Shown piece by piece: positions 3,138 through 42,866 of a DNA stretch of 64,000 bases (position 1 is its first letter; the number at the start of each line of letters is the position of its first letter). The DNA comes from a virus (Duplodnaviria > Caudoviricetes): the IMG/VR virus record IMGVR_UViG_3300029705_000021; one strand, given 5' to 3'. The notes beneath the pieces were generated by a model. It saw only the letters and a list, made by a program, of their open reading frames with translations. It made no database searches and was not told where the DNA came from. Both the position numbers and the translations under genes were made by a program.

Positions 3138-4145
3138 ATTACATTCTCCTTTCTTATCTCACTCTTGTTCTATCAAACTCATAAGCAGCACTTCCTTGAA
3201 GTAAAGTTTTCCAGCCACCATAAAATGTGATATGAACTTTAGGATTTCCGTTGATGTCCATTGTTATATTGTAACTTTCAATGTCCGAATAAGAATGACA
3301 AGTTGTTGGTACAAAATCATATAACATATTCATTTGCGCTCGCTCCTCTCTTAATCTTCCATAAAGTCTTCAACAGATATATTATACATATCTTCATAAA
3401 CCTTATAATGATTTATGATTTCCATATGCTCATCTCTTGTAAGGTCTGCAAGTCTTTGTACTTCGTTGCTATACATATTACAAACTCCACTTGCTTGAAC
3501 TTTTACAAATCTTTTGAATTTTTCTTTCGTTATCATAAATAATCTCCTTTCTTAATCCATCCATCTAATAGCCACACCATCTTCATCAATTTCACATCCG
3601 TAATACCCACAATCATCATCGTCTAATTCAACACTTTCGTGTTTATCATGGTATGGCACATGCTTTAATTTCTGTTCTGCTTCTTCATGATTTTCGGCTA
3701 ATAAATATCCATCTGCAATACATTTATATCCAACTGTTGCTCTCCAATGAAAAATTCTCATAACTGTTCTCCTTTCTTAAAGCTCTAAGTTCAATAGAGT
3801 ATCAATGATTTCTCTTGTGTCATATTCTGCTACACCACGCTCGTCTGCAAACACACTATCTTCATTATTTCGTACACTTTCTGCACAATCTTTTAAATAC
3901 TCAAGTTTATTTTTTAAGCGTTCATATTCTTTTTGTGATTTCAATATCTCAATCTGTTCTTCAAGATTTCCTACAATCTTTAAGATTTCTTTTCCACATT
4001 CAGTAAGAATTTTCTCTGCATAAGCAGGTGCATCTAAACTATCTCCAATTTGATTGATTAGCTCTACTATTCTATCTTTCATAGGTTTCAGCTCCTTTCC
4101 GTTAAAGAAAAGGCAGAGGTTAGTCTGCCTTTGGGGTTGGTTAAT

Positions 4146-5117
4146 TTAACTTACTTTTTTGTTTACATACTTTGTTTTTAATAATCTCGCTTCAAATTCA
4201 GCAAGAATATCTTTTGCTAATGTAGCGTGAACTCCCCACATAATAAATTCATTTAACAAAGAATCCCAAGGGATATCATCAACATCAGCTTTTCCGTTGT
4301 CAGTAAACATATTATATAATTCTTCTTTGGTTTGTGATAGATAACCACCATTCATTAGAGGAATATCTAATTGTTTAACTTCTTCTGGTTTGTCTTTTCT
4401 CTTGTAATGATTATTCTTATAATCTGTAATCGCTTGATTACACAACTTACAATCAAGATTTAATTCTTTTGCAATTTGTGTAGGATTTTTACCAGTTCCT
4501 TGACTACTCTCCCAAGTATCCATTAACAAAGTATACTCTTCCCAAGTAAGTTCTGTTGGTGTTGGTGGTGCAGGAGTCGCAGACTCCGTTATAGGCGAAG
4601 CCGTTTCTGTAGACTGAACCGTTGGTCGGTCACGGTCACGGTCAGTACTATCATTATCACCATCATTACCATTATCATTATCATTATCATTATCAAAAGT
4701 AAGAATTCCTTCATACTCTCCATTACGATATTTCTTTAATGTTTTGTTAACTTTTCCTTTGCTGGTATGTAATAACTGTGCAAGTTTATCTTGGCTTAAA
4801 TCTGGTCGGTCACAGTGTGACTGAATAATCTTTTTACTCATTTCCAAATCTTCACCAGAAAATGCTCTTGCTCTTTTCTCTTGTCCTTTATCAATTACAT
4901 CAAATACTGTTTCAGACACAAAGATTAGAATGTCTTCATCTATTGGTCTTATACCATATAATCCATAATCAATAATTGCACTTTGAACTTTGTAAGCCAT
5001 ATCTACTCCGTACTTCTTTTCAATACGCTTCACACTTGTTCTGTAGTTTCCGAAGAATGACATACATATACTTCTGTCAAACTCCTCTGTTTGCGTTGTT
5101 ACATTGTCTTTTGTCAT
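4146..5117 (-). CDS. HTH-containing replication-initiator-like protein with a DN/DR-rich low-complexity linker
   Basis: LSQDKLAQLLHTSKGKVNKTL HTH-like segment, DNDNDNDNGND linker, second HTH-like PTQIAKELNL. Confidence 0.45.
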   Translation of the reverse strand: MTKDNVTTQTEEFDRSICMSFFGNYRTSVKRIEKKYGVDMAYKVQSAIIDYGLYGIRPIDEDILIFVSETVFDVIDKGQEKRARAFSGEDLEMSKKIIQSHCDRPDLSQDKLAQLLHTSKGKVNKTLKKYRNGEYEGILTFDNDNDNDNGNDGDNDSTDRDRDRPTVQSTETASPITESATPAPPTPTELTWEEYTLLMDTWESSQGTGKNPTQIAKELNLDCKLCNQAITDYKNNHYKRKDKPEEVKQLDIPLMNGGYLSQTKEELYNMFTDNGKADVDDIPWDSLLNEFIMWGVHATLAKDILAEFEARLLKTKYVNKKVS

Positions 5118-6047: not shown

Positions 6048-6425
6048 TTATTTAACTATCTTTACCTTGCAACCGAAGTGTGCTTCAAGTTCTGCCATTG
6101 TCATTTCCTTGACTGGCTTTTCTCTTTTCCAAAGAAGTTTTCTTTCGCTTCTCTCATAGTTAAGGTCAGCAAAAGTATATGGATGTGGTGATAATTCAAC
6201 TTTTATAATATCAAAATCGTCTCCATCATTACAGTCCATCAATCCATTTTTATAAGTCAAATCTTCTTCGTAATTCTCTAACCTATTCCAACGGTGTTCA
6301 TCTGAATTTAACATTACATCACACGCTCCTTTAGTATAATCTGATACTGCATCAAGAAGTACAACATATTCGCTCCCATCTCTTATTGTAACAATCATAC
6401 CAGTTTTTAAATCACTTTTCTTCAT
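6048..6425 (-). CDS. Conserved hypothetical phage protein
   Basis: MKKSDLKTGMIV N-terminus and EMTMAELEAHFGCKVKIVK C-terminus, a recurrent phage pattern. Confidence 0.7.
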   Translation of the reverse strand: MKKSDLKTGMIVTIRDGSEYVVLLDAVSDYTKGACDVMLNSDEHRWNRLENYEEDLTYKNGLMDCNDGDDFDIIKVELSPHPYTFADLNYERSERKLLWKREKPVKEMTMAELEAHFGCKVKIVK

Positions 6426-38259: not shown

Positions 38260-39267
38260 ATGGAAAAGAATAACAAAAGATACGATTATGAATATGTAAA
38301 ATCTAAATTTAAAAAAAAAGACTATACTCTTGTTTCAGAAGAGTATAAAAATAAAAATGAAAAACTAGATTATATTTGTAATAAACATAAAGAATTTGGA
38401 ATACAAAAGGTTAGTTTTGCATCACTGGAATTGAATAATTGTAATTGTAAAAAATGTATAAATGAAAATGCGGTAGGAAAACGTCATAATGTTCCAAAAC
38501 TAACAATTAAAAACTATGATGAATATTTTGAAAAATATAAAAACAAATTGTTTAATGAAGTTGGAGAAGAATATTCTTTGCAAAAAATAGATGTAAAAAA
38601 TAAGAAAACAATGTTATATTTAATACATAATAAATGCAATCAACCATATCCGATTGAACAATATAAATTTTTTAAAAGAAAATATAGATGCCAAAATCCA
38701 GATTGTAAGCATCAAAGAATATCTGACCGTTGTATGAAAACAACAGAACAATTCAAAAAAGAAGTGTTCGATTTGGTTAAAGACGAATATATTATTGAAG
38801 GAGAATATGTTGGTAAAGATAACAATATTCTTTTCAGACATATTACGTGTAACTGTACATTTGAAAAAACACCGCATAATTTTTTAGCAGGTCAGAGATG
38901 TCCTCATTGTATATTGCCAACTAAAGGAGAACAAAAAATTATTGATTATTTGGACAATAATAATATTAAATATACATTTCAGAAAACATATAATGATTTA
39001 AGAGGTATCAATGGTGGGTTATTGTCATATGACATATATTTAGATGATTATAATTGTTTAATTGAATACCAAGGTCATTTTCACGATGGTACTGCGTTTA
39101 AAGAATATGATGAAAAATTTGAACGTCAACAAGAACATGATAAACGAAAACGAGAATATGCAAAATTTCATGGAATAAATTTATTAGAAATTTGGTATTG
39201 GGATTTTGATAATATTGAAAATATATTAATAGACTACTTAAATTTACATAACGAAATTGCAAGCTAA
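38260..39267 (+). CDS. Free-standing homing-type endonuclease (Zn-binding repeats plus PD-(D/E)xK/Vsr-like C-terminus)
   Basis: Repeated CxxH/CxxC modules; GEQKI...YDIYL...IEYQG.FH...HDKRK.EYA...LLEIWY. Confidence 0.75.
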   Translation: MEKNNKRYDYEYVKSKFKKKDYTLVSEEYKNKNEKLDYICNKHKEFGIQKVSFASLELNNCNCKKCINENAVGKRHNVPKLTIKNYDEYFEKYKNKLFNEVGEEYSLQKIDVKNKKTMLYLIHNKCNQPYPIEQYKFFKRKYRCQNPDCKHQRISDRCMKTTEQFKKEVFDLVKDEYIIEGEYVGKDNNILFRHITCNCTFEKTPHNFLAGQRCPHCILPTKGEQKIIDYLDNNNIKYTFQKTYNDLRGINGGLLSYDIYLDDYNCLIEYQGHFHDGTAFKEYDEKFERQQEHDKRKREYAKFHGINLLEIWYWDFDNIENILIDYLNLHNEIAS

Positions 39268-39317
39268 AATAAAAAAACTAAATATTATACAAGTAGGGTG
39301 TTCTACCCTACTTCTAT

Positions 39318-39390
39318 GGGAACTTAGCTCAGTAGGCAGAGCGTTTGGCTGTTAACCAAAATGTCATATGTTCGATCCCTATAGTTCCCG
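39318..39390 (+). tRNA. tRNA-Asn(GTT)
   Basis: Acceptor GGGAACT/AGTTCCC, anticodon arm TTTGG-CTGTTAA-CCAAA, one mismatch in the T stem. Confidence 0.85.
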
Positions 39391-39415
39391 TTCCTTATTC
39401 TATGGTGGAATAAGA

Positions 39416-40039
39416 ATCCTATGATGTATACTGACTCAGATAAGTATATTAGGCTCTCTTCGGAATGACTGCATCCGTATCTGAAAACAAATCAGTAGTC
39501 AATACTCATCCATCCTAGTGTGGTATGAGCTGAGATTTTGTCAGATTGACATTTTCGTATTGTCTCCGAGAGTGACGGGACATTAATTTAGAATATCGCT
39601 CAATTGTAAGTTAAAAGAATAGGTCGAATATTCTTTCCTCTCAACTGTTGGTGCATTCCTAGGGAAGTAAGACTATCTATAGAAGTAGATTAAGCCAAAC
39701 ATACTGGTCACATGGGCAATGTTTGTACGAAAGAGGTTCTGGTGTTATAGACCACCCTAAAAAATGATTGGAACGTAGCCACGTTTGAATAATAGGCTAG
39801 TGAGTAGGGATGACCTCCGAAAGCGATTAATAAAAGAACCTAACACGCCTCTCGATGATGCGTACCACGTTAGGTCATTTGAAAAGAACCCTTAAGTGGG
39901 CAACTATGCTCTTTATGAGCCGTACATAAGTACATTACTAAGCATGAATGGAACAAATTCTCTATTCTAAACAACTGGTTGTGTACAGACCAATAAGAAG
40001 TTAGTTAGTGCTTTATACTTCTTATTAATTTTGTAGGAT
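39416..40039 (+). ncRNA. Candidate large structured ncRNA (~625 nt)
   Basis: ORF-free, GC-richer than flanks, more than ten hairpins, terminal ATCCTAT/GTAGGAT pairing, lies between tRNAs. Confidence 0.6.
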
Positions 40040-40108: not shown

Positions 40109-40183
40109 AGCGGAGTAGAGCAGTTCGGTAGCTCGTCAGCCCCATAAGCTGAAGGTCGTGGGTTCAAATCCCACCTCTCGCAA
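40109..40183 (+). tRNA. tRNA-Met(CAT), initiator-like, degenerate
   Basis: fMet-like D arm, anticodon loop CCCATAA (C instead of U33), extra base in the 3' acceptor strand. Confidence 0.65.
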
Positions 40184-40186
40184 TCA

Positions 40187-40289
40187 TAGATAGTTACAGC
40201 AAATTTAAATCTTAACGAAGCTCCAGTAATTGCTTTTCGCAGGTTCGACTCCTGTGTGTAAAAGAGACGGTTCTCAAAACAACTATCTA
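40187..40289 (+). ncRNA. ACAGCAA-motif stem-closed RNA, copy 1 (contains a T-arm-like hairpin)
   Basis: TAGATAGTT/AACTATCTA stem, ACAGCAAA just inside it, GCAGG-TTCGACT-CCTGT. Confidence 0.5.
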
Positions 40290-40446: not shown

Positions 40447-40546
40447 CTTGGTTGCCTAATGCATAGCTATAGGCGTAATTCCTACCACTATCCTCTTACT
40501 GGCGAATTGCTGGGAGTGCGCACGAATAGAGGCAATGGTGTATTAT

Positions 40547-40622: not shown

Positions 40623-40728
40623 AAGACACGAACAGCAAACTTATATGTTATATGATGAATAAAATTATAAAGAAATTACAGATTTAAGTATTTACTGATA
40701 GAAATTAACTATATCAATGTTGTGTCTT
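40623..40728 (+). ncRNA. ACAGCAA-motif stem-closed RNA, copy 2
   Basis: AAGACACG/TGTGTCTT stem followed by AACAGCAAA. Confidence 0.45.
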
Positions 40729-40730
40729 GT

Positions 40731-40841
40731 AAGGCGTGTTAACTGCAATATTTCAAATAGCAACAAGAAATTTTATTTAATTAATTATCTCCTATCTAAA
40801 ACTTTAAATTTTAAATATTCTATTTATTATAATTGCGCCTT
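40731..40841 (+). ncRNA. ACAGCAA-motif stem-closed RNA, copy 3 (ACTGCAA variant)
   Basis: AAGGCGTG/TGCGCCTT stem followed by TTAACTGCAAT. Confidence 0.4.
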
Positions 40842-41411: not shown

Positions 41412-42866
41412 ATGAAAGGTGGAATACCTTTGGGAAAGAAAAAATTAAAAGAGATTAAAATCTCATTTGTAGATGAGCCAGCAGCTGAAGATGTGACTGG
41501 TTCATTTGTATTAGTAGAAACACCACATCATAAAATTGGATTAGATTGTGGTCTTAGTCAGTCAAACGATAAATATTTAGACTTTATGACAAATAATCGT
41601 AAGACTAAAGAGTTTAAACCGAAAGACTTAGATATTATATTCGTTAGCCATTTGCATGGAGATCATTGCTTGCTAGTACCAAAGTACTATAAAAATGGGT
41701 TTAGAGGTGCTACTGTTATATCTCAGGGAAGTAAAGATGTTTTTAAAGCAATGGCTGAAGATTCAGCTTTTATATCAGAAAGAGATATTTTAGTAATTAA
41801 TAATCAGCATAATAAAAATTATGATCCATTATATTCAATTGAAGATGTAAATCTAATGATGGAATATACTATTGAAAAGCCAGTTAATCAAAAAATTGTA
41901 ATTGACGAAGAATTGTCATTTGAATTCATCCCATCTGGTCATTTATTAGGTGGATGTCAAATAATTTTATATATTACTATTGATGGTTTAACAAAATCAA
42001 TTTTGTATACTGGAGATATTGGAAATAGAGAAATTCATAATTATTTTGTAGGTGAATATCAGCCTATAGATAGATTTGTTGACTTAGCAATTTGCGAAAC
42101 TACATATGGAGATAGACCAGATTTAAAAACTGGTATAAAGGAAAGAAATAATGATTTAGATAAATTAAAGTCTATTATTGACACACAAGTACATGAAATG
42201 AATGGTAGAGTTTTAATTCCGAGTTTTGCACAGAGCAGAGTTCAGCAATTAGCATTAATGATTTATCAATTATATAAAAATGAAGAATGGCAACCAAAAG
42301 TATATATTGACTCCCCTCTTGCTATTACTATTTTTAAAGAATATGAAAAGATTTTAGAGGGAGAAGAAAAAGAATTATTTGATGAACTATTAGCTTGGGA
42401 TAAATTAGTATTTGTAAAAGAGTCAGAATCAAGTAAAGAGTTAGTCGAATCAAAAGAAGCTTGTTGTGTAATTAGTACAGCAGGAATGTGTCAGGTCGGT
42501 AGGGTAAGACATCATTTAAAGTCTTTAGTATCAAATCCAAATGCAACTATATTGTTTGTTGGATTTTCTACGCCTGGTAGTTTGGCTACTTTGCTTAAAG
42601 ACAATAAGACAAAATCAATTATTATTGATACTAAAGAATATAAATGTAGATGTGCTTCTTACAGCTTAAAGTCTATGAGTGGACATATGCCTTTTGGGCA
42701 GATGTTACAAACATATTCAGATTTAAATTGTAATAAAATAGTTCTTCATCATGGAAGCACTGAAGCAAAAGAAACTTTTAGTAAAGCTTTAAAAAAAGAA
42801 TTAGAAAAGAAATGTAAATCAACTAGAGTTGTAATTGCTAATTCTAGTTTAAAATTTAATTTATAA
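41412..42866 (+). CDS. Metallo-beta-lactamase/beta-CASP ribonuclease
   Basis: VTGS, LDCG, SHLHGDH, SGHLLG, YTGD, ETTYG, PSFA..R.Q, DSPLA, SGH and HG motifs. Confidence 0.9.
   Translation: MKGGIPLGKKKLKEIKISFVDEPAAEDVTGSFVLVETPHHKIGLDCGLSQSNDKYLDFMTNNRKTKEFKPKDLDIIFVSHLHGDHCLLVPKYYKNGFRGATVISQGSKDVFKAMAEDSAFISERDILVINNQHNKNYDPLYSIEDVNLMMEYTIEKPVNQKIVIDEELSFEFIPSGHLLGGCQIILYITIDGLTKSILYTGDIGNREIHNYFVGEYQPIDRFVDLAICETTYGDRPDLKTGIKERNNDLDKLKSIIDTQVHEMNGRVLIPSFAQSRVQQLALMIYQLYKNEEWQPKVYIDSPLAITIFKEYEKILEGEEKELFDELLAWDKLVFVKESESSKELVESKEACCVISTAGMCQVGRVRHHLKSLVSNPNATILFVGFSTPGSLATLLKDNKTKSIIIDTKEYKCRCASYSLKSMSGHMPFGQMLQTYSDLNCNKIVLHHGSTEAKETFSKALKKELEKKCKSTRVVIANSSLKFNL

Follow-up and report, generated by a model that had tools for sequence, protein, structure and literature searches.

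An exchangeable cassette of small RNA units, probably including antitoxin decoys, in the tRNA array of a gut/rumen-type phage

The tRNA array and its surroundings

The stretch analysed here, positions 39416-40039 of a 64,000-nt window (the whole stretch of DNA that was analysed), belongs to a virus record of 161,663 bases that is 91% complete and has 31% G+C. It sits in a tRNA array, with HU and HNH endonuclease genes on the 5' side and beta-CASP nuclease and Clp protease genes on the 3' side. As the sequence-only reading had placed it, it lies between tRNA-Asn (39317-39391, + strand) and tRNA-Met(CAT) (40110-40182, + strand), the 5' and 3' boundaries of what we call the cassette. The HNH endonuclease gene (window 38260-39267) directly precedes the array, and the gene for a beta-CASP metallo-hydrolase (window 41412-42866) follows it. 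A weak sigma70-type promoter-like site (39243-39270, + strand, 10/12) lies ahead of the array, where 8 such sites were observed and 6.0 are expected by chance. No tRNA, terminator or promoter splits the stretch between tRNA-Asn and tRNA-Met in a sequence scan, and it is free of open reading frames, as had been claimed, the longest stop-free frame of all six being 44 codons.

The source is a gut/rumen-type phage. The relatives retrieved via the beta-CASP protein have YonG, YonJ and YonK as neighbours, two relative copies reside in Clostridia genomes, and an integrase gene is present in the window; together these features point to a temperate, SPbeta-like phage with a presumed host among the Clostridia. 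The position of the beta-CASP gene next to tRNA arrays is conserved in dozens of relatives.

Other folded elements occupy the same array. Stem-closed elements of ~105 nt with a common 7-nt motif lie between tRNAs at window positions 40187-40289, 40623-40728 and 40731-40841; they have no Rfam match, and counterparts are found in L347 (~3187-3288), L354 (~2552-2655), L272 and L252. Another unit of ~95 nt (window 40449-40546), also without an Rfam match, lies between tRNA-His and tRNA-Gly and resembles L352 sequence near 4090-4185. Degenerate tRNA-Met-like genes missed by ARAGORN adjoin RNA units in L272 (~1087-1160), L007 (~4922-4995) and L134, in the last case beside unit B (described below).

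A string of small RNA units

In size and in location beside phage tRNAs, the cassette is like ROOL (RF03087) and GOLLD (RF02032), and the sequence-only reading took it for an RNA of this type or for a new single large RNA. Unlike these RNAs, it has no model match and no conserved whole-molecule architecture. ROOL gave no match at E<=10 (model cut-off 99.1 bits) in a scan that held no ROOL positive control, and the single conserved ~580-nt ROOL architecture is absent, the parts being rearranged or alone in relatives. GOLLD gave no match at E<=10 in the phage's own genome; since the same scan detected GOLLD in relatives L266 and L357 (152.8 and 182.7 bits), a GOLLD RNA in the stretch would have been detected. 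These true GOLLD RNAs (L266 3283-3756 and L357 2697-3183) lie at the same HU-to-beta-CASP locus. For tmRNA, RNase P, group I/II introns and riboswitches, neither Rfam nor ARAGORN returned a match, in line with the earlier view that the stretch is neither a tmRNA nor an intron; a likeness by eye of 39730-39770 to a preQ1 riboswitch was dropped and has no Rfam match. The Rfam comparison proposed by the sequence-only reading thus found no large RNA, but did give an abiF match above the cut-off. Full-length homologs were found in none of the GenBank phages, 80 related phage loci and 401 Clostridia genomes compared. The covariation expected among homologs is present within units, whereas no relative holds the whole stretch as one unit. 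Because ROOL and GOLLD give no match and the parts are shuffled, separated or alone in relatives, the stretch is not one giant RNA; it is a string of small folded RNA units. The more general proposal, a structured non-coding RNA in the tRNA array of a Firmicute phage, was right; the sequence-only reading did not recognise that two of the parts are relatives of bacterial antitoxin RNAs.

The folding statistics do not bear out the description of the stretch as densely base-paired beyond chance (z -1.48 on the + strand and -1.60 on the - strand). With 100 shuffles, the z of the stretch is -1.40 and that of the full 718-nt spacer -2.05, no 100-nt window goes beyond -1.9, and the excess over shuffles is slight and equal on both strands. 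The ten stem pairs that had been listed were all found at the expected places, with varied outcomes. Those at 39505/39525 and 39539/39548 (unit B), 39838/39869 (abiF) and 39992/40018 (unit D) covary, and a bovine RNA-library contig has a compensatory double change in the stem at 39772/39781. The stem at 39590/39628, in contrast, is without support and cannot coexist with the unit E pseudoknot, which covaries, and those at 39696/39719 and 39906/39941 are at most partly kept.

All units described here lie on the + strand. Unit A (39392-39501; also in L272 and L354) has three hairpins, the last of which may form a pseudoknot (39461-39501), and shows double changes in 10 of 29 pairs among 3 sequences. 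Unit B (39503-39559) consists of two hairpins with an invariant 8-nt loop and keeps 94% of its pairing, with 9 double changes (0/500 shuffles); here and below, the unit alignments are small (3-11 sequences) and the sequences related, so that shuffle counts are not to be read as probabilities. Unit E (39555-39612) is followed by the middle hairpins (39613-39770), which the bovine RNA-library contig matches from 39684 onward; no homolog of 39613-39683 was found among the sequences compared. PK2 (39771-39799) is a compact H-type pseudoknot (39772-39775/39782-39785 and 39776-39780/39795-39799) that resembles type III antitoxins in size and shape. The pseudoknot descriptor finds 3 candidates against 0.07 per shuffle, which is weak evidence because it was tuned after E and PK2 had been seen. 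The abiF unit (39831-39880) is followed by unit C/D (39903-40026), in which small hairpins precede a covarying pair of hairpins (39938-40025) that ends in a bulged stem-loop; 6 of the 14 pairs of unit D have double changes.

Units A, B, E, abiF and D recur in relatives in other orders, spacings and sites. The relative L143/L272, which is 89% identical to the source phage over the upstream gene and tRNA-Asn, has unit A, 270 unrelated bases, B fused directly to abiF, and then D. B is joined to abiF in L347 without A or D, and stands alone between two tRNA-Leu genes in L252. L354 has only unit A, L279 and L287 carry unit D within a different tRNA cluster, and unit E occurs alone in L264 and in Enterococcus phages. 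The 869-base bovine contig has unit B, omits E and matches 39684-39879 at ~95%.

The sole long-range element with support is a closing helix between 39416-39424 and 40031-40039 (+ strand), and it bears on an alternative in which unit A and this helix form a carrier that displays interchangeable payload domains on one multivalent 624-nt molecule. The helix that had been proposed to close the stretch is predicted with pair probabilities of 0.7-1.0 and shows three double changes in L354 (2297-2303/2449-2455, with the 3' strand before tRNA-Met), even though it encloses only ~150 nt there versus ~610 here; the undivided state of the stretch also fits a single molecule. However, L272 lacks the helix while having A, B, abiF and D, and B, D, E and abiF all occur without A. 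The whole-region z is only -1.4, the helix draws its support from two sequences, and a 7-bp helix between the two ends also forms in 89% of shuffles. We consider such a scaffold unlikely, and return to the string of independent units.

Two units resembling RNA antitoxins

By homology and covariation, unit E is a predicted type III antitoxin repeat of TenpI-like type. Like TenpI (PMC12283969, PMC13682666), it has the format of a 50-55-nt unit with a central H-type pseudoknot and a long A/U-rich loop. In unit E the pseudoknot spans 39562-39601 (stem 1, 39562-39568/39576-39581; stem 2, 39570-39575/39596-39601), and its stems keep pairing in 93 of 94 cells (98.9%), with 11 double changes (0/500 shuffles). 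The unit matches 24 plasmid records at 2-4 places each. On Enterococcus faecalis plasmid pEK4S, an E-like 52-nt unit, repeated 3.1 times in tandem, stands between a promoter and a terminator and is followed by a 158-aa ORF, an arrangement of promoter, repeats, terminator and TenpN-like ORF that has the layout of a type III toxin-antitoxin locus and would mark the bacterial source of the unit. Unit E shares 87% identity with the pEK4S repeat along 54 nt; in a small library this match has E 6e-11, and reversed controls reach 1.6e-4 at best. The best family for the 158-aa ORF is TenpIN (NF047358, E 2.8e-10), yet its 40.6 bits stay under the 90-bit NCBIfam cut-off, and the source toxin of unit E would belong to a divergent TenpN-like subfamily. 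An Apilactobacillus plasmid likewise carries a 53-nt E-like repeat (3.1 copies) beside a TenpN-like ORF on the opposite strand.

Type III toxins were also sampled from the family of Ruminococcus sp. AM36-2AA. The Clostridia toxins in this sample closest to the pEK4S toxin are those of L399-L402 (E 1e-28 to 4e-24), and an E-like unit lies upstream in L400-L402, those of the four with upstream DNA present. As the closest toxins of the pEK4S type have E-like units, the toxin and RNA subfamilies travel together and exist in the likely host group. The exact pattern of unit E occurs in none of 301 Clostridia genomes, and looser copies were found ahead of TenpN-like genes. The divergent TenpN-like type III toxin-antitoxin subfamily can be seen at L358 2440-3173 (NZ_AP025272.1) as well as in L399-L402; on the plasmid it is listed as a 'hypothetical protein'.

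Unlike a TenpIN system, unit E is a single copy without a promoter, terminator or toxin of its own, and its single-stranded flanks differ from those of the plasmid repeats. In TenpIN, the single-stranded flanks of the repeat contact the toxin, a single TenpI repeat is enough for rescue, and some single changes inactivate ToxI (PMC13682666). A lone unit E is also present in the cultured Enterococcus phage vipetofem (MT119361; L002 2992-3047); in this phage and four kin it shares 90% identity with the pEK4S repeat, 5' flank included.

The second unit is a predicted lone AbiF antitoxin hairpin. Its match to RF03085 (39839-39875) scores 38.5 bits, above the gathering threshold of 37, and the bulged hairpin covaries with 15 double changes (0/500 shuffles). 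It resembles the known abiF RNA (RF03085; AbiFr, RCd22; PMC12373285) in its bulged hairpin, conserved loop and covarying stems. It differs from an AbiF system in being embedded mid-spacer in a genome with no Abi_2 gene, and from the C. difficile antitoxin, which has two motifs, in having one. RNA with the abiF motif binds AbiF and neutralises it in trans (PMC12373285), and an abiF RNA in a cyanophage has been noted once (PMC9964418). Chromosomal copies from the family of Ruminococcus sp. AM36-2AA share 79-88% identity with the unit. Among the 16 bacterial abiF hairpins examined (L360-L376), 5 have an Abi_2 gene directly behind them and 11 are followed by unrelated genes or none (eight downstream ORFs checked, all unrelated), so that orphan copies can be remnants or terminator-like. 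Lone abiF hairpins adjoin tRNA genes in many other phages, according to a pattern scan. In L007, a second, weaker abiF-like hairpin (6322-6358, 26.2 bits) follows tRNA-Gly.

Neither Abi_2 (PF07751) nor TenpN or ToxN genes were found in the phage's own genome (91% complete), which, like a phage mimic, thus carries antitoxin-like RNAs with no cognate toxin in the assembled DNA. TenpN and ToxN genes are also absent from five other carriers, two of them essentially complete. Further lone antitoxin-like units occur in the arrays of relatives. In L347 and L348, abiF is directly followed by a ToxI-like unit that shares 90% identity with repeats in L420; these precede a ToxN gene, which has two internal stops. 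With weaker scores, L007 has a ToxI-like unit at the exact position of E and another just before abiF, and L272 has one. A search that returned four sites below E 1e-5, all non-coding, with none in the reversed control, yielded a TenpI-like unit in L266, where a tRNA lies 6 bases away, and, in L267, a unit resembling one that precedes a CptN gene. In another gut phage group, the tRNA array is flanked by a lone ToxI-like unit ahead and a lone abiF hairpin behind (L030 12025-12067, L064 557-600 and L124 10484-10527).

The sources of the other units were not found: those of A, B and D in plasmids or phages, and that of PK2 in plasmids or a viral pattern scan, with 251 genomes at background level. 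Covariance models of A, B and D returned nothing in 106-121 Clostridia genomes (run without a positive control), and the viral pattern scan for unit A gave chance matches only. Most likely, these four too are ligands of this kind, directed at other host proteins.

Decoy function and alternative readings

The best reading is that the cassette consists of independent 40-120-nt RNA units in a phage tRNA operon, with at least two antitoxin decoys among them. As two of the units copy the RNA antidotes to two suicide nucleases, AbiF and a TenpN-like toxin, the phage probably disarms those defences, and we consider it likely that the stretch is a swappable antitoxin-decoy cassette co-transcribed with the tRNAs. 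The units would be transcribed together with the tRNAs from a promoter ahead of tRNA-Asn, which would supply the RNA abundance needed to titrate host toxins. Trimming of tRNA-Asn and tRNA-Met would then free the 718-nt spacer, which the 39416/40039 helix may clamp, and the nearby beta-CASP nuclease might aid processing. Unit E would adopt its TenpI-type pseudoknot and the abiF hairpin its AbiF antitoxin form, folds that covariation shows in units whose homology to antitoxins is clear. AbiF RNA and type III antitoxins inhibit their RNases but are unstable, and when they are lost during infection the RNase is freed (PMC13728456). When infection cuts host transcription, the host antitoxin RNA would decay and free the TenpN-like and AbiF RNases, which the phage copies would bind, preventing abortive infection. 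Lineages would gain and exchange units to match host defences, a cause suggested by the observed mosaic.

The published precedent is pseudo-ToxI of phage phiTE, likewise a type III antitoxin RNA carried by a phage that lacks the toxin, for which suppression of abortive infection by mimicry was proposed; such mimicry is proven for phiTE and works given abundant RNA, and the wild-type phiTE locus was not protective until expanded (PMC3475682). However, phiTE has one family and needed repeat expansion, whereas in the cassette two or more unrelated antitoxin families share one spacer of the tRNA operon, each as a single copy, and the copies are exchanged between relatives. It is neither a toxin-antitoxin system nor a ROOL or GOLLD RNA, and its working mode would be like that of pseudo-ToxI. 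What is new is the mixed, swappable antitoxin-like cassette; the literature searched, with few subscription papers covered, describes no exchangeable tRNA-operon cassette that combines several antitoxin families. Chief among the doubts are the possible weakness of single copies, as with wild-type phiTE, the divergence of the flanks of E, the frequency of orphan abiF hairpins in chromosomes, and the large share of the stretch, about three quarters, that is without an assignment. Evidence of expression comes from a single RNA-library contig, which belongs to a relative; a search of sequencing runs turned up one holder, with a small share, and contigs reveal neither ends, strand nor level.

A bolder version, in which all units (A, B, E, PK2, abiF and D) are decoys for different host RNA-binding defence proteins in a clamp-closed anti-defence array of SPbeta-like Clostridia phages, seems unlikely. 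If every unit were a decoy, the unassigned ones would point to RNA-controlled defence systems still undescribed.

It is also conceivable, if distinctly unlikely, that the units serve as signals for processing or stability, or that they are neutral remnants picked up with mobile DNA, and that their likeness to antitoxins reflects origin and not present function. Orphan abiF hairpins are common in chromosomes ahead of unrelated genes, an HNH endonuclease gene lies directly upstream, and the flanks of unit E are divergent. Yet compensatory changes keep the pairing in the phage copies themselves, three antitoxin families occur independently in non-coding array sites and never with a toxin, and toxin fragments would be expected alongside remnants. 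Action in lysogeny or against competitors, with a temperate phage silencing toxin-antitoxin systems of co-resident plasmids or prophages instead of escaping abortive infection, is very improbable: the integrase gene, the YonG/YonJ/YonK neighbours in relatives and the plasmid location of the closest matches of unit E speak for it, but unit E is also alone in vipetofem and its kin, and location within a tRNA operon would fit expression in the lytic cycle. Descent from ROOL or GOLLD as a diverged RNA is largely refuted by the missing matches and by the shuffling of parts among relatives, although the length and position beside tRNAs fit ROOL (PMC5737381) and relatives have GOLLD at the same locus.

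Long ORF-free gaps in phage tRNA arrays should therefore not be taken as ROOL- or GOLLD-like by default. RNA-based anti-defence in phages is so far on record from a single laboratory-evolved phage and a single type III family. If the units do work as decoys, phages in the wild would maintain, within their tRNA operons, a modular set of antitoxin mimics directed at several suicide RNases, and part of the unexplained non-coding DNA in phage tRNA arrays would be accounted for. It would also provide short RNA inhibitors of AbiF (the Cas13 ancestor family) and of TenpN-like nucleases, and the unassigned units could serve as bait for new RNA-controlled defences.
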